Source of the DNA: Squalus acanthias
Lineage: Eukaryota
Direction of reading: 5' to 3'
Length of the DNA stretch: 64,000 nucleotides
Assembly: GCA_030390025.1 (NCBI GenBank)
Contig: CM059446.1
Span: 38,440,001 to 38,504,000, forward strand
Below the pieces are notes generated by a model. That model did not search any database, was not told the DNA's origin, and worked only from the letters and a program-made list of their open reading frames with translations. Every line of letters begins with the position of its first letter. Position 1 is the first letter of the stretch. Of the stretch, positions 675 to 43,588 are shown piece by piece. The translations under genes were made by a program, and so were the position numbers.

Positions 675-1214
675 TACAGGTCTTCAGAGGGGCACAAATA
701 CAATGGAGACCATGATGCTCCATCTGAGCCAAAAACAAGCCATGGATTCCCCAGCAGTAAATGACTGACATTGCAGTGAGCTCGTGTGTTCTGGATTTTC
801 AGAATGATGGAAGTTGCAGGTAGATTTATGGAGGAGCCATTTTCTGTTACACAATGACCGATTGAAAAATCTCTACTAGCCTAAAAACTATCTTCTTCCC
901 AAAGTTCGCCGCATCTGAACTGATTAAAAAGTATCTTAAATATTAAATCTGAGAGAAAAGTACACAAGAATTTAGTAAGACCATTAATACTCGCAAGCGG
1001 CGCGAAGACTGGTTCTTCCCAGGAAACATAAACAAACCAACTGCTCGCACTCAAACCACACGAGGTAAGTGCACGAGAGGAAATGTCTACCTGCACTGCC
1101 CTTTACATAATAAACGTGCAGGTTAGGGTTCATTCCCCAATGGTATACTCATGGAGTTCACCCACGCATTCTGCATGTGAACCCTGGAATCAGGTAGGTA
1201 GGGCCCAGCACCAG

Positions 1215-1410
1215 CATTACTGCGATCACCAGTCCGTGATCAGGCACAGAATTTTGGAGGGGATTGCACGATACCCTAACAGCAGCCACGATACTTTCAT
1301 TTTGCGTCAATCAACTGTGTCAGCACTGTTTCAGGGAGCAGGCAGAATGAACAGACGCCAATTAGGGCACAAGAGCTCCCCTTTGGAGCCCTCGCTATTA
1401 ACACCCAAAC
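1215..1410 (+). pseudogene. Harbinger (HARBI1-like) DDE transposase fragment
   Basis: YCDH...IARYPNSSHDTFILRQS...LGHKSSPLEPSLLTP resembles the ARYPGSxHDxxILRQS and LGDxGYPLxxWLMTP motifs. Confidence 0.8.
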
Positions 1411-1469: not shown

Positions 1470-1770
1470 CATTCTGAGGATCTGAGCGTCGCTGGCAAGG
1501 CCTGCATTTATTGCCCATCCCTAGTTGTCCTTGAGAAGGTGGTGGTGAGCCTTCTTCTTGAACCGCTGCAGTCCATGTGATGAAGGTGCTCCCACAGCGC
1601 TGTTCGGTAGCAAGATCTGGGATTTTATCCTAGCAACTATGAAGAAACGGCGATATATGTCCAAGTCGGTATGGTGAGTGACTTTGAGGTGATAGTGTTC
1701 CCATGCATCTGCTGCCCTTGTACTTCTGGATGGTGGAGGTTGTGGGTTTGGGAACATATTCTGGTGGAGC
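1470..1770 (-). mobile_element. CR1-type LINE 3' fragment inserted in the Harbinger transposase
   Basis: gcgtcgctggcaaggcc..catttattgcccatccct..ttgagaaggtggtggtgagc tail, also seen at ~22465 and ~30760. Confidence 0.7.
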
Positions 1771-1779
1771 AGGCAATTG

Positions 1780-1975
1780 GCATATTGAAACAGATTTTGC
1801 TATTTGGACAGACCAGGACCGCACTACAGACTTGAGAAAATGTCGAACGTTATCAGCCTTTGCGGTATCCTGCACAAGTTGGCAATACAGAGAGGGGAAA
1901 CCTTTCAGCGAGAAGACCATGAAGGGCCGTCTGCAGCCTTCACTGAGAAGGAGGAAGAAGAAAAGAAAGGGGCGC
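1780..1975 (+). pseudogene. Harbinger transposase C-terminal fragment
   Basis: LDRPG..Y..EKMSNVISLCGILHKLAIQRG followed by an acidic tract; homologous to the 42881 ORF (CCALHNIAQQRG). Confidence 0.75.
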
Positions 1976-3439
1976 GTGAATTTATATAGCACGTTCCACA
2001 TCCTCAGGACATCTAAAAGCACTTTACAACCAATGAGGAAAAGGAGGATGGAAAACTGGGCTGATGTGCGGTCAGGAAGACTGATCCGTCAATTGTTCAT
2101 TTGTAGGATTTTCCCTTAAAAGTTGCACTTATGGCTCTCCATGAACAGTCCTATGGTCATTTCCATAATATACTGGCTCTTGAACAACATACTCTGCTTA
2201 ATCACCACTGCATTTTCTACTATCGCAGCCTGTGTCCCACCATCTGTAACATTCATATGTCCTTTCTGACATTTAATCTACAAAGTACATTCCAAAGAAT
2301 GTGCAACCAGTTTATTTTCCTACTCAGGTTCTGTGTCTCTGCTTTAACTTTTAGCTTTCGGTGCTCGACCTTGGTGAGTATGTAAGGTCTATGTCACCTG
2401 TTTCCTAGTCACGTGCTCCTTCTAAGTTCCATTACATGTGATGGCCGGCTCCTCAATAGGGACCACGTGACATTGTTTTGATGATTCCCTTTCTTCTGCA
2501 GGGTCATGAAATGGGCCTACAATTACTGGCAGCACTTCAGCCCTTGCTCCTGTCCCCTACCTGCTTCTGCTATAGTCCTCTGAGGGAGACAACTGGGTTG
2601 GGCAAATAGGTCATCATCCTGAGAGATAGATGCCTCATCATTGACTCTTCCTGCCGTGCCAAGTTGCTAGTTGTCCCTTGACGATCACCAGGCATCTGTG
2701 TGGGAAGGGCCACTTGTTTGTTGCTAAAGAATGGGAAGAAGGCTCTCAATTTCTTCTCAAGCCAATCCCCGAGCCTCTTGAGATCAGAAGTGAAGCTCCC
2801 TGTAAACTGAAGCTCCAGGTCTCAATCGTGGCGACACAGGGTTGGACAGCAAAGCTGTATCTACACTGGGACTTTCTGTCCTCGGGGGCTCCCACAGATT
2901 ATGTCACTTCCTCTGTGCTAGACTGCAGGTTCCCCAAACCATTTTTTAATGCCTGCACAGATATAAGAACTACTGTCTATTCTCTGCCATTCCACAGAGG
3001 AAGCTCTGAAGGACGTCACAAAGTTCTTCTGCTGATTAATAAGTTTAGCTCTGCATGCAATCTCTTGTAAAGTATTAATCCATGGGTTCTGCAGAAGATG
3101 CATGTCTGGCCCTTCCTCTTGTTGCTGCTGATCTCCTGTCACCTCCACTTGCTCTTCCTCATTTGTGCCTGGTGTCTCATAAGGTGACAATTCCTGACCC
3201 TCTTCTTCAGATTCCCCTATAGTAAATGTGTGTGAGCTGGTGTTTATGGGGGCTGGAGTGATTGACAGGTACTTGTGCAAGGTGCTGGCTCATCTACATT
3301 AAAGAAAAATATAGCCTGTATTTATATAGCGCCTTTCACATCCTCAGGACGTCCCAAAGCATATTGGGGGAACAGTGCTTGATTGCATGCATAGCACAGA
3401 GATTCATTTCATTTGATTTAGCACACTTTATTCAACTGT

Positions 3440-22710: not shown

Positions 22711-23596
22711 CCGGTAGTTGAAACTATGCTACCGTTCCCGATATGGTATGTAAATGAAACACACTCTTTCAACATTATCCCAGAAAGCTACCACAGATCT
22801 CATCTGTAAACTCCAGAGCTTAGAGGTATGGAAGCTGATTGATACCCTCAGTAAAATTTGTCATACACATGAGAAAACTAACCTTTCAGTATTGTTATAA
22901 ATTCAGGTCTGCCATCAAAATCTTTGTGGGTCAGTTGCTCTGATAAATGGATCACATGCCCCTTACGTGTCAGGGTTGACTCACACTGCCCAATATCTAT
23001 GTACACAATAGCGTAACACAGGGGATGTAAGAATGCGTCCTTCCGAACATATGAATTGGATATGTAGGGCTCGATTTTGCCAGGCCCGAGGAGGCGAGAT
23101 TGGAGGCGTCTGAGGTGGTAAAATTGCAAAAAATGGCGGACGGGCCTGATCCCACCTCCATCCCGCCTCCGAGCAATTTTCCCAAATGCGTGTTTTCTGA
23201 CCCCATTTCCATCCCGCCTCCAAGAGGCGGGATAGGCCCTTAAGGCCCTTAACAACCAGTTAAGTGCCTCTATAATCCCATTTTGAGAGGCCTTTCTGAT
23301 TTGACCACTTTTCCCACGTCCTGCACGCCTCCTCTGGAACACGCCAGTTAATCCTGGCGGCCTCACAAGTGGACTGCTTACTAACAGCTGCAGCTCCGCC
23401 ATTAAAAAGGAGTTTTCAGCAATCATCATTTGCAGGTGGCAGAACTTTGTTGTCTCAGGTCTGGGGGAACTTTTAGCAGGCATACTCATTGTTGTGGAAG
23501 TTTGGAGCCTGACTCCCATCTCCAGTGTGACCTACTGGGAAACCCCTCTCGCCACCTTGACTGAGCGCTTCCTCAACTGAGGCATATACCAGAAGC

Positions 23597-23811
23597 ATGG
23601 GAACCATTTATTTCCTTTCCTCCTGGACATCAGATTCGGACGAAGACCAGCCGTGGCAGCAACAGATCCATGAACAACAGCAGCAGCAACAACAGGAGCG
23701 CCAAGCTGCTGCTCACCCACCTGAAGCTGCACAGGCCAGAAGGCGCCAGCGCGCGACCAAATTGCTGCCCGGGATGCAAGGGATGCACTCATCTTGGCCA
23801 GATTTGCTTAG
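23597..23811 (+). pseudogene. Harbinger transposase reduced to its N-terminus fused out of frame to its last 16 codons
   Basis: MGTIYFLSSWTSDSDEDQ..Q-rich start; 23761-23811 reads IAARDARDALILARFA*, matching IAGRQARDALIHARFA* ending at 43171. Confidence 0.8.
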
Positions 23812-24043
23812 CCTGCGTAATCAAACAATTTTGACTCGCACCTTCTTATCAGACCATCGACAATGGCCAAGAACCTGCGGATTCCTATCACTCTGACCAC
23901 CATACTGACAATTGCAAGTCGCCCTAAGCCCTCAATGTGGAAGTCCCATTAGCAAAATGACACACGCCACAACTGCAACAGTTTGCCATCAGAATTTTTT
24001 GTGACAATAAGCAACTGATGGCTTTTCAAAATTAAACACAACA

Positions 24044-25481
24044 TTACACCCAAGTGTCTATGGTAGCCAGCCTTACCATGGAGGTAGCCAGCCTTACCAT
24101 GGAGGTAGCCATCCTTTCCAAGGAGGTTGCCATCCTTTCCGTGGTGATGCGTTCATGCGCCAACGCCTCCACAAAGGCTCTGCTCATGTTAGCGATGGAC
24201 TTCTCCATTCGCTCCACACTCGCAGCGACCCTGGAGACAAAACCTGCCAGAGACTCCTGCACCTGTTCCTGGAGTTCCAGCACCGCTCTCCTTCTGGATG
24301 GACCTGGAGGCACAGTGTTGACATGCAGCGGAGCTGAGCTGGGAGCGTCCTCTCCACTGCGACGAGGACTCTCCACTGCTGTTCCTGTCTCCACCATCTG
24401 CTGATGCTCACTTGTGAGCTGTGATACACCAGGTGACAACTCTACTCTATGTCCCGAAGATCCCACCGAGGTGTGAGTGTCTGCACTGGTGCAGGGTGCG
24501 CTTAATTCTGCTGACGGAGCGCCCTCAGAGGTTGCAGCTTCCTCTGAGGAGTCTGGAAGCTCAGGCTCTTCCTCCTGGACAGTGGGGATGGGGGCTCTCG
24601 ATGGTCCTGTGGGGGAGTAAAGGAAAGAGTTAGAGATGTGAGGTAAAGGTTGCATGCACGTTGAATTGTGCAGATGATCATAAGTCAATCAGTTAGAGCA
24701 TCAGAATCATTATCAGTCACTCATGCAATGTCAATGAGAGAGATGCCAAACTATTCTGTCACCAGCTTGCTGTGATGCGCCCGTCTGTCCGTCCCCCACT
24801 TGGGAATCCTCCTCGATCCCGACAATTTCCAGGGACGCCTCCTCCGAGGTGGTGAGCTGGGCTACTGAGGGTGGCCCTCCTCCTGTCCTCGCTCTTTCCC
24901 TCTTATTGTGGACTCTCTTTTCCTGCAATGAGGGACACAAGTGGAGTTTGAGTGAGAGTGAAGGAGTGAGTGTAGTGAATCCATAGCATAGATGCTTAGA
25001 AGGAGACAAAGAGCCCTCCCTGTGTGTTGTAAGTTGTTGTCATTGCGTCACAGTGATAGGGAGTGTGAGGGCTGCATGGTCGAATAGTTAAGTGATTGTG
25101 ACCGTAGAGAGAGAGGGAATGGGTAAGGGTGCAGGGATGTCAGTGTCAAGTGGGATGTGGAGGAAGAGGTTGGCAAAGCAGAGTGCTGGTGAGGAGAGGC
25201 GATGGGGATGAGATTGAGGATGATGAGAAAGTCCTACTCACTTTTCCTGTGCGGAGAAGGTCATGAAACCTCTTCCTGCACTGCAGCCAGGTTCTGCGGC
25301 ACATAGAGATGGCATTGACCTCCTGGGCCACTTTCAGCCACATAGCTTTAGTCTGTTGTGGTGGCTTTTTTCTCCCTGAGGAAGGGAAGAGCACCTCCTT
25401 ATTAGATCTTGCTCCCTGCACCAGAGTTTGGAGGGAGGGCTCATCAAAGCGAGGTGCACACTTTTGCTTGCTGGTGGACAT
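24044..25481 (-). CDS. Harbinger Myb/SANT-like DNA-binding protein, 3 exons (25481-25242, 24922-24763, 24606-24044), 320 aa
   Basis: Exon 1 CAPRFDEPSLQTLVQG..W..VAQEVNA..RRTWLQCRKRFHDL; GT/AG sites (GTGAGT, TTGCAG, GTGACA, CCACAG) with matching phases 0 and 1; 963 nt with no internal stop; RTGGGP motif; C-terminal heptad repeats. Confidence 0.85.
24060..24142. repeat. 21-bp coding tandem repeat (about 4 units)
   Basis: ggtagccagccttaccatgga units; on - they encode ERMATSL/ERMATSM/VRLATSM/VRLAT. Confidence 0.85.
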
Positions 25482-28031
25482 GGTCGGTAAATGAAGTCCT
25501 TCATACAATGTCCAAAGCGTTTCCAGTCTCCAGAAGAACCAAGGCTGCTTGCAGGCCTTAAATCCAGCAGCACTGATGATGTCATCGGAGGCGACTTTCA
25601 GGATGGAAAGACTAATTGGGCCAGGGGTTCCCACATGCTGGAAATCAAGTGCCCAATTAGGGGAAAATCCCACTTTTTTCCCACTTCACGTCGGAGTCGG
25701 GGTCCTGACAGGAAAACCACCTGACACGCCCCAGCCCGACCCCAATGACAAAATCGAGCCCCATGTCTTTTACACATCTCCTCACGTGCTTCTTTAAGCT
25801 TCTGAAGGTGGACCGAGAAAACTCTTGATAAGATGAGGCCAGATACGAATTGTGAAACTGTTGTATTTCACAGACAGCAAATGAACACGCAGCGAAACAG
25901 ATTATTCTTGGATTCACTTAATTCAATCAGCATAACTTGTCTTTGCATAATAATATAAAATAATGAGTATGCTACACTTCCTCACATTAGTGGGTCACCT
26001 TGCTTGATTTAAACAAAATAACATCTCATTACCATCTTGCATTTTAACCTTTTGAGTCTGGCGAGAGCGCACCCTCATAACTTCTGTTTGAAAACCTGAC
26101 TGACTGCAAGTCTATCTGTCTGTGTTTACAACCTAAGGAAGAGGCCTCTGCTAGGCAAACCCAGCCGAGCACCCTGTGAACTAGGAACCTCCCAATACCA
26201 TGGGACTGAGGTATTTATCAATTACTGAGACAGGCTAATAATTTGCTCCTTGTTTACAGTCTTTGAGGAAACAACTTCAAAGCCTTGCCCATTAGTATCT
26301 TAACCAGCTTTCTTCTGAGTGCCTTTTTTAAACTTGCGCAAATACATGTTGCTTTACAACACATCCCTTAAATATAACTCTTTTCCCTCAATCCTCTCTG
26401 TGGGAATATGGTCAAAGAATCCTGAAATGTAACAAATATATTGGTGAGCACACACCACAAGAAGATATAGGAGGTGCCATCAGAATCAAGATGGTACATT
26501 ATGTTTGCGAGTACACTAAATCTGACATTTAGAATCTGACCACAAACATTATTTAACTGTGGGATATTTGCACCAAAATATATATTAAAAATATGTATTC
26601 ATTTCGATCATATTATGAATACAAGATTGTTTGGTAATTCTGTGCATTTCCTAAACATCACTTTACAATTTAATTCTGCCGATATTCTGTTCTAATGTAA
26701 ATAATAGTGAAGGATATCAACTGCTCCAACAGCAGACGGTTCTAATGTTAATTTATTTAGCTCAAGCCCTCCTTAATAATAGCTCAATTAATATGGTTCT
26801 TGCTCTGACCACCAGATATTTATTAAACCGAAGTTTTGTCATAAAATGCACCCTGGAGCTGAAAAGTGATCAGGGTCCAATACATTGCAGCGATAGATAG
26901 ATTTACAAAAACAGGAATAATGTTGCGTTCTGATATTGCAACATTGTCATTGTTCTTAATCAGTCCTTTAAGTGCCTCTCAAATATGTATATCAACTTCA
27001 AACAAGGCCCCATGGCTTTTAGAATAACATCACAGGTGTCTAACTAAGTGCCTGACAAGCATGCCTAAGGTCCCAGCTGGCTAAATCAATGCCTGATCAT
27101 TTTCATTTACCTATCACAGTCCCCTTTGAACATGGATATTACAATTTGCCATTACTGCAGCCTACAGAAACACTTGCATGTTCAAATGCAGGTCTAAATT
27201 ATATCATTCAGTATTGAATTCTCTCAAAGAGACCCCAGCAAACATTTTCTGCGTGAACACTTGCCAAATTGTACTTAAGCTTTTTTTTATATATTCAAAA
27301 ATGTTGTAATGAATGGTTAAAATTCACAGCACATCAAGCAATCATCTTCAGCAGAATCATTCCTTTTATATCACGATTCATTTCAGAGATTCAGATGTTG
27401 CACTGCCACATTTTGTCAGCTGGAGGTGTGACTCATTAGTGCTGCTATACTCCCACAACACATCAGCTCCGCAGTTGGCATTTGATGATGCTACTAAGCA
27501 TCACGAGGTCAGGTTAGGTACAGTCAAGACACTAATGCTCATGCTTTGGAATGTGCCAGCAGTACAGACTCAACCATATGCTAGCAACTAAAGTAAAACT
27601 GAGTTTTGAGAGGGTATAAAGACATATATGGACACACTCAGAGTTAACGTGTGATACATTAATGTAACAAAGTAAATTAAATTAGCACCTATAATAATAG
27701 CACTCCCTTCTCTCTCATCACCAGGAAGGATAAGGTTACATTTTAAGCTATTCCCAAACAGGTTTTGCTTGACACCTATCAGGTTTTGCACTGGACAGTC
27801 CCATGCTTAAGTGGGCTGGTCAGAAATTTGAAAAGTGTAAATCAGACCTCTATTGTTTTTCTGCTTTGCTTCCTCATTGTAGCATCTGTCATTACTTACT
27901 TTTTCGATTTAATTTTCATAAGCAGAAAACTAAAGATCAGAATTGAATGATCCTAGCCACATTCTGCCTCCTGTCTAGTTGGGCACAAATGGGAATCTTA
28001 GATCGAAAGACCAACAAACTAAAGGTTGCAT

Positions 28032-28062: not shown

Positions 28063-28794
28063 TACAACAGCAGCATACACAGCAAGCTCAGCAAAAGAGA
28101 AGACATGAAGTCACAGGGAATGATGTTCCAGGGACTCCATAGTCTTAAAGGGGCAGTGTTTTCATGTAAAATTGTTTGGCAAACCTCTTTATTTTGGGGG
28201 GGAGCAGGTCGGGAAAGAGATGTGCAATATTTCTGTCACAACAATTTCACCTTCAAGTGAAGCGATGATGGGTTTCAGTGTGACCCTGGAACATCACTTC
28301 CTGTGATCTCACCTCCTCTCTCTCTCTCTCTCTATGAGCTTCATGTGCTTGGTATTGATGTAGCTGTCTCTTACTATTTTGTAAACAAATGAAAAAAAGT
28401 TTTGCCAAGTACACGCTCACGAAGCCTGTGTCTTTTGTTGTTGTTATTGTTTAAAGGTAAATTCATCCTGCATTACAATAACGGGCCAGATATTTCTGCG
28501 ATGGCGAGCTCGGTGAAGCACACCATAATATTTGCTGTCTAGTGTGCTGATCTCGCCATCGATAACCTACTCTATATTTTCCTGCATTGCTAATTAGCAT
28601 AAGCCGCAGTGGGCACAGCGGCCAATCAGAAGCGGTGCAGCCAATGGCCAATATAATGATTTTGCCACTAACGGTGCGATTTGTTATGGTGGTAATTGAA
28701 GCGCTGAGCTCCACATGAATGCAGCATTAGCACCGCCTCTTCTGACCTAGATTCCGATGTAAACTACATTTCCACTCGTGAAATTAACGTGTCA

Positions 28795-29431
28795 GTGGAT
28801 CCTCCTGGTTAGTGGCTCAGTGAGTGGATCCTCCTGGTTAGTGACTCAGTGAGTGGATCCTCCTGGTTAGTGACTCAGTGAGTGGACCCTCCTGGTTAGT
28901 GACTCAGTGAGTGGATCCTCCTGGTTAGTGACTCAGTGAGTGGATCCTCCCGGTTAGTGACTCAGTGAGTGGATCCTCCCGGTTAGTGACTCAGTGAGTG
29001 GATCCTCCCGGTTAGTGGCTCAGTGAGTGGATCCTCCCGGTTAGTGGCTCAGTGAGTGGATCCTCCTGGTTAGTGACTCAGTGAGTGGATCCTCCTGGTT
29101 AGTGGCTCAGTGAGTGGATCCTCCTGGTTAGTGGCTCAGTGAGTGGATCCTCCTGGTTAATGGCTCAGTGAGTGGATCCTCCTGGTTAGTGATTCAGTGA
29201 GTGGATCCTCCTGGTTAGAGACTCAGTGAGTGGATCCTCCTGGTTAATGACTTAGTGAGTGGATCCTCCTGGTTAGAGACTCAATGAGTGGATCCTCCTG
29301 GTTAGTGACTCAGTGAGTGGATCCTCCTGGTTAGTGGCTCAGTGAGTGGATCCTCCATGGTTAGTGACTCAGTGAGTGGATCCTCCTGGTTAGAGACTCA
29401 ATGAGTGGATCCTCCTGGTTAGTGGCTCAGT
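28795..29431. repeat. Minisatellite, 22 x 29-bp unit GTGGATCCTCCTGGTTAGTGRCTCAGTGA
   Basis: Units counted directly; head-to-tail with no spacers; one 30-bp variant. Confidence 0.97.
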
Positions 29432-29826: not shown

Positions 29827-30575
29827 ATCGATAAATCACACGACTGTTAGGCCACCAGTACCAATATTTTCTAATCTATCGGGATGAGGAAAGGATGGGA
29901 ATCCTCCAATTCTGGTTTAAAATCAAATATAAGTAAGCCATAAAAGTCACAGGTTCAACGACTCAACAGTTAACGTTTTGTTGCCGGGAACGACTTTCTC
30001 ATCGATAAATCAAGACCTTGAATTATTAATCAAGGCCGAGGGTTCGGGTGTAAAATACCTCCTGTAACTGGTCAGTAAGAACTAGTCCCAATCGGCAAAC
30101 ACATTTAGCGCATTGTTTAAAAGCAATCAGTGAATGCATTATAAAGTCAATAAATCACATCACTGCTAGGCCACCAGCACCATTATGTTTCAGTCTAAGT
30201 GGCAGCAGAGTCAAAAGTGGCTTAACAGGAAAATCCCGATTGCCATTGATTTCATTTGGGGGCGGAGCTATGATCATTAGCTTCTAACTGATTTCACCGG
30301 GGCAATGGCGGAGCGGTGCAAAAGCCCAAGGAAAACGGCATAATAAATGGCCCAGGTCACTTAATCCCTAACTTCCTCTTCCTTTTGTGCCATTGAAGGC
30401 TCTCTACGTGGTAGATGCGTCATTGTATGTCCCCAGGAAATTCTGGGCCAATGTGATAACATTGATTATATTTTAAAACATTGAAATGGTCTTAAAACTC
30501 TTTGACACCATAAAATAACACCCATTAACTTTGAACATGATAACGATACGAACATTTCGAGAGTTAATAACAAAC

Positions 30576-31277
30576 GGGGTGATTTTAACCCTTCGTGCCT
30601 GGTGGAAACTGGGCGGATTGGCAGTTAAAATCGGCCAAGTTACTTACCCTTCCCTGAAGCCCCTGGGAACCGACCAATCCAAATTTGAATTTGCTCCACT
30701 GAGCAGGCAGCAAGGACACCCGCCCAAAGCTGGCGGGGTTTTTAAAAAATTTGTTTATGGGATGTGGGCGTCGCTGGCAAGGCCAGCATTTATTGCCCAT
30801 CCCTTAATTTACATATGCATGTCGGGTTTCAATGACATCATCGGGACACTGACTGCAATTTTTACTAGGCGGCCTGAGCGGGAATCGGCAGTGGGTTTCC
30901 TGCCAGGCCAACCCGGCGAGGAAGTGGATCAGGGCCAGAAGAGGCCCAAAAGGGATAGGCTTTATATTTTCTTTTACTTTCTTTGTGGGGGCTCAGAGGA
31001 GCAGGAGTGCAAATCTGGGCCCCATAAGGAAAGCTTAGCCTTCTCCTGCTGCATTCTCACCCCACCTCTCCGCCACCCCGTCCCAGATTGTGGAATGGCC
31101 CGGCAGCCTATCCCACCACTTAACCTGCTGTCAGAGGGCGAACTCCGGGCTGCGCGATTTTCCACCGATTTCCTGCCCAGAACGGGATTCAAAATCGGTT
31201 GGGTCTCATTCTGCAATGGGTGGGAGAGAAATGAACTCACGAGCGTGGTTTTCCGCTGGCTGTTAAAATCCAGGACC
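30576..31277. mobile_element. Harbinger-type MITE containing a CR1-tail fragment (~30755-30805)
   Basis: GGGGTGATTTTAAC...GTTAAAATCCAGGACC termini, aaac on both flanks, GC-rich interior. Confidence 0.65.
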
Positions 31278-34200
31278 AAACCTTTGTTTCATTATTATTG
31301 GCACAGTTTCAAAGAGAGGTGTGTTGTTAATGTGTTTTTGCAGCGATATTTAATTCATTCCTGACTCTCTTGCTTTCCGTTTTTTTTTAGCTGACACTGT
31401 TTGTGGTCAGTTATCCAAGTAATTAAATCTAATTTAAATCCAATTACTCCTGACGAATAAAAATGCAGTGAGGCACATGCTGGGGCGGTATTTCAATTTT
31501 TGATTCCTGGCTGCAGAAATAGTTCTAACAGCACTTGGCATTGCTCTGTGGCTTGTTATGTGGCGCACAGAGTCATCACCTGACGTGGTGTATGGCTCAC
31601 ACTTGCCGGAGACAGATTAAATTCTGTTTATGTCAATAACATGCCATGGACAGACTTGCAGGCAGGAGCAGGGCAAGCCTCTGAAAAGGCCAAGGTTATA
31701 AGGGTCAGGATCATCGAGCAGCACGCCCAGACATGTGGGTGTGAATAATATTAATCGTCTTACGTGAAACCTATTATTTTAGGTCGGAAATCGATACTAC
31801 CTTTATGTAATTAAACTAAAGTCACAAATGTTAATGTCGGTTGTACCAGTTCAGGCCAGTGTAGAGTTAGTGAGGTATGTTGTTTACTGGCAAATATTAT
31901 TTGTTGCATTTTTTAGAAAGAAAGTTAATCTTTAATTTCCCTGGTTTAATGCCATGTGACTCGGTTCCATTAGAATCCCTCCAGTTTCTTTCTTTCCAGA
32001 TTTTCCTTTAGTAATCTTGCAAATACTCAACTCCTGCAACAATAAAATAAATAGTAATATATTTATGCTTGAAATAGTTGTGCGCCTGTCCTATTGTTTT
32101 ATTTCTTCAGGTTCTTTTCCTTTTTCTTGATGATTTGGGAGGGAGAGGGGGTTGGGGGGGGGGGTGAGTGCAGCTGCTTCAACCCCACTTGTTCTGGCAA
32201 GGACATCCACCAGTCTCTGCTGTCAGCCTGCCTGAGGAAGAATTCTCTTGTGCTGGAGTTTCTGCTGGCAGACAGACAGGCCGTGACAGAATATCACTGG
32301 GAGGCACCAGGGCAGCAGAGGAGCAGAAAGTGCCTGAGCTGATGATCCCTCTTGTACAGTGGAACTCAGAATATCATCAGGAGAAGGCTTGACAGGCAAC
32401 ATTTGTGTGGCCAACTGGGGAATTAGAAGCCAAGGTGGAATGGATCTGTCGCAGCGGTTCTACACCAAGGCAGACACATGCTGGGACAGTTCATCCACCT
32501 CATTGCCTAAACTCTCCAGATGGGTACAAGCCCTGTCAAACCTCAACGATCCAAAGCCCCAAGAAAATGCTGCGCAAAGGGATCATTAGGCTGAGCTTCA
32601 TGATGCCAAAGGCACTTATTCCTAGATGGACAATGATGCTATTCCTTTGGAGGTTTAGTGCAAAGGGAAAGGAAGGAGTGAGAGGTGCTGAGCATCTGAT
32701 TGTGAAAGTGAGCATTTCTCTGTTGCTGAAGGCACAAGAAGACCCGTGGACTATTGGCAGAGGATTCTCTCACATTCTTTGCGAAGTCGGCTGTGCTTAG
32801 TGCGGTTACTGGGTGAGGAGATGGTGTGAGCCTTGTGGTGACGTGGACTCTCCACCACCTTCTGTGAACATAGAAAAGAATTGTGCCTGCCCCTTCATTC
32901 TATACAAAAAGCTTATTGTGTACGGACACGAATTTTGAGCATTGAACTCTGGTTCTCTGGGGCACTGCCTTGATCATTGAGGAGTGAGAAGAATAGAACA
33001 GTGGAACCGCTGTACATCATTTTCTTCCAGTGATAGCACATGTCATGTTTGGCATTTAGGTGACACCATGATGCCTTTCAATGTGATTTATATTTAAATT
33101 ATAATATTTGGGAAACACTGGAACAACGTTGACCAAACGCTTTTCCATACAGTGCCTCTTTAACTTATTAAACACTCGCCTGGAATTTCTGCTGGGGGCG
33201 GGGAGGGTATAGGGGGGGCATTCACCAGCAAATCAGTGGAACTCCTGGAGAAACGTCACGAGTGGCCAAAAACATCTATTTCCGTCATTATTCCAGGAAT
33301 TCCACTGATCTTCCACCTATGTTATGGCGGGAGATTGGGAGGACCCCATGGAAATCGAGGGCCTATCTGCATGGTTAGCGGCTTGTCTTTTGAACCAGAA
33401 CAGTCCACTATACAAGTGTGCTGTGTTATAGTACTGTAAGTAATGTGGATTTTTAAACATGAAATATAAGCCGTACTTTTCCATTGTGGGTGCGGAATGC
33501 ATATGTTGTCATGGCAGATATTTTGCTCTGTGGCAGACAGTGGTGGAAGAAACATCTGGTTCAGGAGGAAACAGCAAGCTGAGTTTGATTTAAAAAAAAC
33601 ATCCTGTTGAGGACATGACTTCACTGTGTGGAAGAAGACCATCTTTGTAAAAATATTAATTCAAATGGGCAGAGTAATATGTACTTTTTCCTATCACTGG
33701 TGATTTAGAAAGAAGACAAAATCAAAAGCACACAAACATTCAACGCAGTCCCTTCCCCGAATCAGTCTATTATGTCGATCCAGGCAATAAGTCATTATAC
33801 CAACACAAAATAATTTTACTTGAAGGAACAAGTTAGCTTGCTACAAAATGGGGTGATACAATTACTGACCAATGTAAAATTCAGGACATAGCATGAGAGT
33901 GCACTTTACTTCACCCCGACACAGTACTGCCGCCAGGATTGCATCACTGAACGTAATTTGCATGGATAGCTGATTTTGCACGATTTTGCAAAGTGGTCTC
34001 GTTAGCATAATTTGAGAGTGCCCCAGTTGCAAGGCACTTGCTGATTTTGGAGGGCGGCTTATCCAGCACAGAAGCAGCTTTTAAAGGGCTGCTGCTCGCA
34101 TTTAAATGGAAGCCGCAGTAAATGGTAGCACATTAGAAATTCTTCTAATAAGCAGTGGAAGGTGCCCTTCAAAACTGAAGGGTACCATCCTATCAAGCAC

Positions 34201-42871: not shown

Positions 42872-43171
42872 ACCATCGGCTTGCTCAAAATGCACTTCCG
42901 ATGCCTAGCCATATCTGGAGGAGCCTTACAGTATGCACCAGCCAGGGCGTCCAGAATCGTTGTGGTCTGCTGTGCTCTGCACAACATCGCACAGCAGCGC
43001 GGCTTAGTGCTACTGGATGAACAAGTGGCTCAGCACACAGCCTTCTCGGAGGAAGAGGAAGAGGACGGGGAGCGACACTTTGTGGGGTCGGATGTGGCCA
43101 ATCCAGCAGCAGGCGAACACATTGCTGGCCGCCAGGCAAGGGATGCTCTCATCCATGCCAGATTCGCGTAA
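42872..43171 (+). pseudogene. Harbinger transposase C-terminal fragment
   Basis: TIGLLKMHFRCLAISGGALQYAP..IVVVCCALHNIA, a HARBI1-family motif; natural stop at 43171. Confidence 0.9.
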
Positions 43172-43348
43172 GCTTACGCTTTAACCACAGGTGGCTGGCA
43201 CATGGAGATGAATATAAGTCCGACATCCTCAAAACCCCAGGCATCATCTGTCTACTAAACTGCTCAGTGTCACCACCAACATTCTACATGGAAATCACCC
43301 CGAGCCCTCACTCTTGAACTTCCATTTCCCAGAACACAGCTGCCACAC

Positions 43349-43588
43349 TTTAGGTGATCTCAGCAGATTATTAAACCTTTTTCGATACTGAACCCATGTG
43401 CGTCTGCACACAGACCTCGAACTCACCTCCTCAGCAACTTGCAGCCAAGCTGCCTTGGTTTGCTGAGGAGGCCTCCTCCTTCCATTTCCAGGGAAGAGGA
43501 CCTCCTGACGTCCTCTAACTCCCTCCACAAGAGCATGGAGGGAGCCCTCATTGAACTTGGCTGCAGCCTTAGTTTTTGGGGCTGCCAT
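43349..43588 (-). pseudogene. Harbinger Myb/SANT exon 1 (80 codons); exons 2-3 deleted
   Basis: PPQQTKAAWLQVAEEV..RRTWVQYRKRFNNLLR; same length as, and clearly homologous to, exon 1 at 25242-25481; TIR ..GATCGAGCCC ends at 44056. Confidence 0.88.

Follow-up and report, generated by a model that had tools for sequence, protein, structure and literature searches.

The element at positions 23,067 to 25,761 of the window, the whole stretch of 64,000 nucleotides of Squalus acanthias DNA analyzed here, is a non-autonomous member of the PIF/Harbinger superfamily that carries two internal deletions. It first lost the transposase core and later about 193 codons of the Myb gene. The element likely spread on transposase, and likely also Myb protein, that complete relatives supplied in trans; the open Myb frame is likely a passive relic of its youth. 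We give this reading as a whole a probability of roughly 0.75. The family to which the copy belongs has kept its DNA-binding gene and lost its transposase, is multi-copy and has its own insertion sites.

Structure of the element

The features of the window copy are collected in Table 1. The earlier note had reported both terminal inverted repeats (TIRs), and these form a pair of 16 nt that is 94% complementary. It had also described a transposase collapsed to about 54 and 16 codons joined out of frame, which is close to the 52 and 18 codons that we measured. Compared with 11 two-gene relatives, the missing transposase segment is about 1.0 kb (820-1,041 bp), and the remnant has no transposase family match in a profile search. 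The element thus lacks the DDE core of an autonomous Harbinger. It belongs to PIF/Harbinger by its TIRs, a family-level 3-bp target duplication, an extended target preference, and a parent with DDE_Tnp_4 and a separate Myb/SANT gene.

Table 1. Features of the window copy, with positions in the window.
Feature	Position	Strand	Basis
Whole element, 2,695 bp, subfamily S (transposase core and Myb C-terminus deleted)	23067..25761	+	colinear with 30 fetched relatives
Left TIR	23067..23082	+	repeat detection; 34-nt left-end pattern
Two subterminal 28-nt direct repeats, 86% alike; candidate Myb-binding sites	23146..23224	+	repeat detection
Transposase N-terminal remnant, ATG at 23597, 52 codons	23597..23752	+	aligns with start of 414-aa consensus transposase of two-gene relatives
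Junction 1, deletion of about 1.0 kb of DDE core, common to 3.2-kb and 2.7-kb classes	23752..23753	+	1,071 exact matches, control 0; alignment
Final 18 codons of transposase with stop, in a different frame from N-terminal remnant	23755..23811	+	ORFs, alignment
Read-through tail DTWV*, from parental 3'UTR	24044..24058	-	alignment with parents
Myb exon 3, truncated, 563 nt	24044..24606	-	ORF reading
Junction 2, 593-bp deletion at 4-bp microhomology; about 193 Myb codons including basic tail gone	24058..24061	.	alignment; 130 exact matches, control 0
Four 21-bp units giving heptad-like repeats; one unit duplicated relative to parent	24062..24145	-	repeat detection, alignment
Intron 2, GT..AG, 156 nt, predicted	24607..24762	-	ORF reading; no joint among those listed
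Myb exon 2, 160 nt, RTGGG motif	24763..24922	-	ORF reading
Intron 1, GT..AG, 319 nt	24923..25241	-	ORF reading; matching joint in contigs of two runs, one study
Myb exon 1, Myb/SANT-like domain, 240 nt	25242..25481	-	PF13873 match
Right TIR	25746..25761	-	repeat detection

The opposite-strand Myb frame was found as the earlier note had described it, with three exons, 963 nt, 320 aa, GT/AG sites at both introns and no internal stops. The Myb/SANT domain, RTGGG motif, low-complexity linker and heptad tail are all present, and exon 1 matches Myb_DNA-bind_5 (PF13873) with an E-value of 4e-11 and 43.1 bits (cut-off 21.7). The same note called this gene intact, which does not hold against the nearest 3.27-kb parents, as junction 2 has removed 593 bp, about 193 codons and the parental stop. 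About 38% of the gene is lost, while the Myb domain itself is whole. The suspicion that the final residues (IDTWV*) stem from a deletion junction was right, as DTWV* is read-through into the parental 3'UTR. Myb proteins of both the 4.27-kb two-gene and the 3.2-kb Myb-only parents are about 490-500 aa long (488 aa in the consensus of the 3.2-kb class). The full-length DNA-binding gene is therefore present in the 3.2-kb class and absent from the window subfamily. Where the two overlap, the consensus Myb of S and that of one 3.27-kb group do not differ.

The family intron-1 joint was found in contigs, presumed to represent RNA, of two of the four runs used (out of 15), both from one study; this joint is not tied to an element class. 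Spliced reads had been proposed as a check on the gene. Intron 1 of the family is indeed spliced somewhere, while no intron-2 joint occurs among the 15 joints listed (seven further joints exist).

Family size, parents and target sites

All 30 relatives that were fetched are colinear with the window copy, 2.67-2.71 kb long and 94.8-96.4% identical to it. Exact matches in the genome numbered 1,071 for junction 1, which makes this an amplified family, 130 for junction 2, which gives the 2.7-kb S subfamily at least 130 copies, and 1,481 for the 34-nt left-end pattern; the control gave zero in each case. The earlier note had held that a single copy without spliced reads, with neutral divergence and a longer parental Myb C-terminus, would mark an ordinary recent deletion. 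The copy is far from single; neutral divergence and the longer parental C-terminus were both found.

The parents, 4.27-kb two-gene elements and 3.2-kb Myb-only elements, are present in the same genome. The two-gene parent was located with a pattern excluding junction 1 (836 matches), and 19 two-gene copies were sampled from at least several hundred. Copy L083 encodes a transposase matching PF13359 (E 4.5e-35), and one of the 19, L152, has an open stretch of 426 residues. PF13359 profile matches elsewhere in the genome were also considered as parents and rejected, as they belong to remote Harbinger families that have hardly any DNA similarity to the window family.

A census of the first 66 left ends listed on contig C1, biased in that the left-end pattern derives from the S subfamily, gave 46 junction-1 copies other than S, 6 S copies, 12 copies with a transposase core and 2 with other deletions. 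Myb-only copies thus number 52 against 12 two-gene copies, and nearly all transposase-less copies have Myb sequence. No element shorter than 1.6 kb and no transposase-only copy occurred among the 66. The excess of Myb-only copies together with this lack of short ones is not obviously predicted by chance deletion. The single copy tested that keeps the transposase and lacks most of the Myb gene is L082, and its junction, the sole candidate junction examined, matches the genome once, at L082 itself. Searching for the deletion junction, as had been suggested, therefore confirmed amplified Myb-only copies and did not reveal a complementary transposase-only class among the sampled ends.

An exact 3-bp target duplication flanks 16 of 30 family copies, and 7 have one mismatch; the window copy lies between GTA and CAT and lacks an exact duplication. 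Beyond the duplication, the 16 sites show a preference for A at -7 (16 sites), C at -4 (12), G at +1 (14) and T at +4 (13).

Mosaic structure of the subfamilies

Both Myb-only and two-gene subfamilies are mosaics, and junction 1 occurs in several backgrounds. In the left kilobase the L135 group has the S state at 32 of 33 informative sites, and across bases 1,500-3,000 it has that of a two-gene group at 85 of 87 (Fisher p 1e-25). L125 and L104 carry the junction block within an L083-like frame, and trees interleave the transposase-less and two-gene classes. Because of this mosaic structure, recombined segments have to be separated before selection is tested in families of this kind. Our narrow literature search found no published account of a junction moving between Harbinger subfamilies, which is weak evidence of absence.

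Neutral decay and tests for selection on the Myb gene

S copies, including the window copy, decay at the neutral rate after insertion. The 30 S copies hold 410 replacement changes, 184 silent changes and 17 stops, against 413, 188 and 23.2 expected from the non-coding spectrum, and the Myb frame is open in 13 of 30, where 46% is expected by chance. The window copy differs from the S consensus by 14 replacements and 4 silent changes, in line with the expected ratio of 2.20 (p 0.86). Its open frame therefore reflects youth, as the earlier note had cautioned. S is among the younger subfamilies, with copies 1.3-2.5% from the consensus; other subfamilies lie at about 1.8%.

The transposase-less subfamilies were compared by allele-frequency classes and group majorities, which replaced branch-wise mapping, and changes were counted on a fixed reference in which insertions are invisible. 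Rows omitted were 8 S copies (star alignment), 6 of 40 with large insertions or truncations, and 8 of 40 census copies that were unaligned. L220 and L222 were left out as near-duplicates of L219, and L181, L182 and L211 repeat L166, L158 and L128.

Across subfamilies the Myb domain is conserved. Each of the five consensuses of transposase-less subfamilies has a stop-free Myb frame and canonical splice sites, as far as an alignment blind to insertions can tell, where 2-3 disabling changes would be expected under neutrality (P 0.07-0.12). The missing first base in one consensus was an alignment artefact. Private fixed changes in codons 1-120 comprise 10 replacements and 14 silent changes (p 0.006 against a ratio of 2.15), and those in codons 121-488 are neutral (24 and 9). 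However, in codons 1-120 the replacements private to transposase-less subfamilies run at 0.051 against an intron rate of 0.045 (p 0.83), and the silent changes are in 2.3-fold excess (p 0.036). The adjoining 5'UTR has a six-fold excess of private changes. Such a silent and 5'UTR excess is what imported patches would give. Since private replacements run at the intron rate, these changes do not establish selection without a transposase. The few alleles shared within two subfamilies (19 replacement, 6 silent) show no constraint. A low ratio of replacement to silent changes in shared alleles had been considered as a sign of selection in transposase-less lineages, and that reading was dropped after normalizing to introns. 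A search for two-gene donors of two transposase-less subfamilies found a transposase core in none of the 60 nearest Myb genes (30 each).

Origin of the family and alternative explanations

In the history that we propose, the 4.27-kb two-gene family found in the genome gave rise, through the 1.0-kb deletion, to the 3.2-kb Myb-only class, which was amplified with 3-bp target duplications. The recurrence of one junction in several mosaic backgrounds suggests exchange by excision-gap repair or ectopic conversion, which may have refreshed ends and Myb segments and would likely explain the open, conserved Myb gene of the transposase-less class. One Myb-only subfamily then lost the Myb C-terminus and still reached at least 130 copies; full-length Myb in cis is therefore dispensable for spread. 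After insertion the copies decayed neutrally, as the counts above show. Mobilization was probably in trans, because Harbinger transposition needs both proteins, which are able to act in trans (PMC2836001, PMC9392472), and target duplications arise here without a nuclease gene.

An unlikely alternative is that the 3.2-kb Myb-only lineage was kept by an advantage from its own Myb, through own-end binding or as the limiting partner. The Myb gene would then be selected without transposase, with the window copy as a truncated branch that arose late. The open frames in all five consensuses, the low private ratio in codons 1-120, the lack of a transposase core in the 60 nearest Myb genes, the 52 of 66 transposase-less census copies and the spliced family intron 1 are consistent with this. 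However, the low ratio is due to a silent excess and not to a replacement deficit, codons 121-488 and the few alleles shared within two subfamilies are without constraint, the truncated S subfamily was amplified too, and the Myb half of the proven mosaic came from the two-gene group. In addition, a protein produced in the cytoplasm would hardly be expected to act preferentially on the element that encodes it. A similarly doubtful variant is that transposase-less Harbingers are semi-autonomous and long kept by an edge from the Myb DNA-binding domain only, with constraint in codons 1-120 and a dispensable C-terminus, as the 2.7-kb subfamily shows. The junction would then travel like an allele between subfamilies, so that the Myb-only form captures the ends whenever a new two-gene wave arises. 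If true, a gene without catalytic function would be under selection in a cut-and-paste element that is itself non-autonomous, and a transposon protein with no catalytic role would bring a benefit in cis.

The truncated 320-aa protein, which keeps the DNA-binding domain and lacks the basic tail and some of the helical region, might instead sit on ends without bringing transposase and so damp the family. Its domain is complete, the frame is open in 13 of 30 copies of a rather young subfamily, and in Arabidopsis HDP1/HDP2 the Myb C-terminal region is reported to be needed to bind the transposase-derived partner (PMC5339849). We nevertheless consider such a dominant regulator very improbable, as there is no copy-level selection and the expression evidence is not assignable to S copies. 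Other subfamilies are equally young, and the time at which activity ceased therefore does not single out S. Still less credible is a split transposon in which Myb-only and transposase-only elements complement each other, as the earlier note had raised and as has been proposed for Caenorhabditis inopinata (bioRxiv 10.64898/2026.05.26.728016). L082 would fit as the other half, but it is alone, transposase-only copies are absent from the sampled ends, and two-gene elements are common (12 of 66), one of 19 with the long open stretch. Early domestication of the window copy, which would make it a host gene like NAIF1 or the MSANTD genes, was also raised earlier and has as little in its favor; the open frame and canonical splice sites suit it, but the copy keeps both TIRs, has at least 130 sister copies, shows no purifying selection (14 replacement and 4 silent changes) and is open at a chance rate.

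Comparison with known systems

Single-gene Harbinger derivatives have already been described, from sea kraits in 2021 and from a nematode in 2026, and the window element is a further case. Harbinger-Snek of Laticauda sea kraits has solo-ORF variants (PMC8437027). In the available part of that account, the kept protein is unnamed and selection and mosaicism are not addressed. Harbinger-Snek has many short non-coding variants, whereas our 66-copy census has none, and it may still be active, whereas here no copy among the 30 fetched exceeds 96.4% identity to the window copy. Harbinger-1M_cIno and -2M_cIno of C. inopinata resemble the window family in the retained DNA-binding gene, the loss of the DDE transposase and the presence of a 3-bp target duplication (PMC13668399). 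As in the window family, DNA-binding-only derivatives are reported there to have expanded beyond transposase-bearing ones, with supply in trans proposed (bioRxiv 10.64898/2026.05.26.728016, also PMC13668399). However, MADF-only copies there are 19 of 258, short non-coding copies dominate, one transposase is intact and the element is active (PMC13668399). The window family has more than 1,000 Myb-only copies and frequent two-gene copies; its members are decaying, and the subfamily of the window copy also lacks the Myb C-terminus. With its size and several subfamilies, the family is a test bed for a question that the authors of the C. inopinata study raise, namely what makes DNA-binding-only derivatives expand beyond transposase-only ones.

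The 4.27-kb parent resembles zebrafish Harbinger3_DR (PMC2836001, PMC9392472, PMC9179366, PMC3158080) and rice Ping/Pong with mPing in its two genes, TIRs, 3-bp duplication and extended target preference. In these canonical systems deletion derivatives are reported to have moved in trans, as probably happened here. Unlike them, the window element encodes no nuclease, and it is not a MITE, being 2.7 kb long with most of a Myb gene. Harbingers carrying Myb, not Myb-only ones, are the subject of the available part of PMC5741667. NAIF1 and MSANTD1-4 share with the window gene a Harbinger-derived Myb/SANT domain and no linked transposase. They are, however, host genes that are fixed and syntenic, with an age of about 430-500 million years (PMC9392472), whereas the window element is multi-copy, TIR-bounded and neutrally decaying.

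For repeat annotation, the window copy can be treated as one ordinary dead member of a large family of non-autonomous elements. Among young Harbinger copies, nearly half are expected to retain an open spliced Myb frame, and such a frame should not be read as evidence of domestication.

Structure and origin of the window element

The Harbinger element in the window belongs to a real, amplified, non-autonomous subfamily with a truncated Myb gene, and the window copy itself decays neutrally. The anatomy described in an earlier note was recovered: both TIRs, a stop-free Myb frame whose first exon encodes a Myb/SANT domain (PF13873, E 4e-11), and a collapsed transposase, for which the note had counted about 54 and 16 codons. 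No exact 3-bp target duplication was found at the ends of the window copy.

Features of the window copy and of other repeats in the window
Feature	Position	Strand	Description
Whole element	23067-25761		bounded by 16-nt TIRs
4-base word	23058-23066, 25762-25770		repeated one base outside each end
Transposase remnant	start 23597	plus	52 codons, then last 18 codons out of frame
Junction 1	23752-23753		transposase-core deletion
Junction 2	24058-24061		Myb C-terminus deletion; 593 bp lost relative to nearest parents, at 4-bp microhomology
Myb gene		minus	3 exons, GT/AG introns, 963 nt, 320 aa, no internal stops
Myb 5'UTR with first codons	~25400-25560		alignment region, hypervariable
Harbinger remnant	42872-43570		transposase C-terminal part (PF13359, E 4e-6); Myb exon 1 on minus strand (PF13873, E 4e-9)
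Transposase fragment	1212-1406		45% identical to parent transposase over 65 residues
Other sequences	28791-29431 and 30519-31364		tandem array, 58-bp period, and 281-residue open stretch without Pfam match

A pattern that excludes junction 1 matched 836 relatives, and most of the 20 fetched from these are two-gene elements of ~4.2-4.3 kb or their remains. The two-gene consensus encodes a 414-aa transposase (PF13359, E 4.5e-35 in the copy L083) and a Myb protein with a basic tail at its end. Among 40 junction-1 copies picked consecutively along C1, a contig of the own genome, 29 are 3.1-3.4 kb long with the whole Myb gene (consensus 488 aa), 5 are of the 2.6-2.7 kb window type, and 6 are truncated or interrupted.

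Junction 2, with 130 exact matches, takes ~193 of ~502 Myb codons together with the stop, so the Myb gene of the window copy, which had been called intact, is open but not intact. The parents thus have the longer C-terminus that the note had named as speaking against its reading, and its suspicion about the final residues was justified, as the last four derive from 3'UTR. The junction 2 region of the 2.7-kb subfamily contains one duplicated 21-bp unit, and its Myb consensus shows no difference from that of one 3.27-kb group over their common stretch.

Family size and element classes

Within the same genome, a DNA search gave more than 30 full-length colinear matches at 94-96% (40 of 13,703 candidates scored), and a 31-nt pattern spanning junction 1 had 1,071 exact matches (control 0), both counts being lower bounds; Myb-only copies are therefore an amplified family, as proposed. 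Target duplications in 30 fetched relatives are exact 3-bp repeats in 16, which share a near-palindromic target preference, and have one mismatch in 7. Imperfect duplications in 14 of the 30 exceed what 2% divergence would give. Three copies on different contigs (L007, L020, L023) are inserted at an identical point of a repeated host sequence, with near-identical 12-nt flanks, which is consistent with an extended target preference.

A left-end pattern had 1,481 exact matches, and we classed the first 66 ends listed on C1 (40 fetched, 26 from earlier-fetched copies). Junction 1 without junction 2 was found in 46, while 6 were window-type, 12 had the transposase core and 2 had other deletions. 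Since the pattern came from the window subfamily, more distant ends were missed. These 66 ends included no copies below 1.6 kb and no transposase-only copies, which speaks against the split system that had been suggested; L082, which keeps the transposase without most of Myb, is a single copy. One of 19 two-gene copies, L152 (G000:C1:34563680-34568320), is open for 426 residues across the transposase and has an exact target duplication. L084 (G000:C1:22113229-22121500) is a nest of three members, with a window-type copy inside a two-gene copy and an inverted third beside it, and the junction-1 copy L101 (G000:C1:1245044-1248544) carries a 37-bp unit repeated ~16 times in tandem in Myb exon 3.

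Two-gene and Myb-only copies are interleaved in trees because some groups are mosaic. In its left kilobase the L135 group matches the window subfamily at 32/33 informative sites, and over its Myb half it matches a two-gene group at 85/87 sites (Fisher p 1e-25); in L125 and L104 the junction block lies within a frame closer to L083. Thus, one deletion with identical breakpoints occupies several backgrounds. These mosaics likely arose through exchange in gap repair or ectopic conversion, mechanisms familiar from other cut-and-paste elements.

Selection on the Myb gene

The 30 subfamily copies differ by 1.3-2.5% from their intact consensus, and as best matches to the window copy they are slightly biased towards little-changed copies. 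Measured against the mutation spectrum in the copies' non-coding sequence, replacement (410 vs 413 expected), silent (184 vs 188) and stop changes (17 vs 23.2) agree with the neutral divergence that the note had also named as adverse to its reading. Start, frame and splice sites are all kept in 13/30 copies, and the chance of no new stop is 0.46 per copy, so the frame is likely open through youth, as had been cautioned. In the window copy we counted 14 replacement and 4 silent changes, no significant deficit of replacements (p 0.86). By this comparison neither it nor its sister copies show any sign of selection after insertion, which leaves early domestication of the window copy without a footing.

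Across subfamilies, Myb codons 1-120 are under strong constraint among alleles shared between copies (57 replacement, 60 silent for those shared with two-gene copies; singletons 102 and 21), as expected for a gene serving active elements. Evidence that the transposase-less class kept Myb under selection of its own is mixed. All five of its subfamily consensuses have an open Myb frame, their private fixed changes in codons 1-120 number 10 replacement to 14 silent (p 0.006), and none of the 30 Myb genes nearest to each of two such subfamilies has a transposase core (0/60). However, with 2-3 disabling changes expected, their lack falls short of significance (P 0.07-0.12), codons 121-488 are neutral (private changes 24 / 9), and private replacements in codons 1-120 match the intron rate (0.051 vs 0.045, p 0.83; scaled to copy-level decay). 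It is instead the private silent changes that are in 2.3-fold excess (p 0.036), and adjoining 5'UTR changes in six-fold excess, which imported patches from more distant, unsampled elements fit better than a replacement deficit. With a sample of just 19 two-gene copies and a series of tests, small p values in either direction call for caution. We consider semi-autonomous transposase-less lineages improbable. In the 5'UTR region the subfamily consensuses are separated by 15-34 differences per 100 bases, compared with mostly <10 inside the element; turnover of the promoter, or exchange with distant elements, could account for this promoter/UTR patch.

Expression and mobilization

Intron 1 (319 nt) is skipped exactly in contigs of two of the four sequencing runs examined (15 listed, none on record as RNA), both of one study and one other organism, their RNA status being a guess. 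This joint, one of the two that the note had proposed to look for, supports the splice model at family level, attributable neither to one class of elements nor to the window copy.

The window element is unable to cut itself out. Both proteins are required and act in trans in assays of rice Ping/Pong and zebrafish Harbinger3 (PMC2836001, PMC9392472). Since both ends and the subterminal repeats are kept, the transposase and Myb protein of two-gene relatives likely moved it in trans, and since the truncated subfamily amplified, a full-length Myb in cis was dispensable. Any protein made from the truncated gene would retain the DNA-binding domain, having lost the basic tail and some of the helical region. 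In the Arabidopsis HDP pair the partner derived from a transposase is bound by the C-terminal region (PMC5339849), which makes a role as regulator conceivable, though unsupported by the present data.

One-gene Harbinger derivatives are already known, and the window subfamily is a further case. Sea kraits have variants carrying one of the two genes, multi-copy like the window family, the kept gene going unnamed in the text consulted (PMC8437027). In C. inopinata, MADF-only derivatives are reported to have expanded with the DNA-binding gene alone, like the Myb-only class here, and supply in trans is proposed (bioRxiv 10.64898/2026.05.26.728016).

Other Harbinger sequences

The second, more distant remnant in the window is 70-74% identical to the parent consensus and keeps the Myb start, with exons 2-3 seemingly absent. 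The fetched copies L031-L060 belong to another family of Harbinger type, in which many transposase frames of 384-392 residues are open and which looks younger than the family of the window element.
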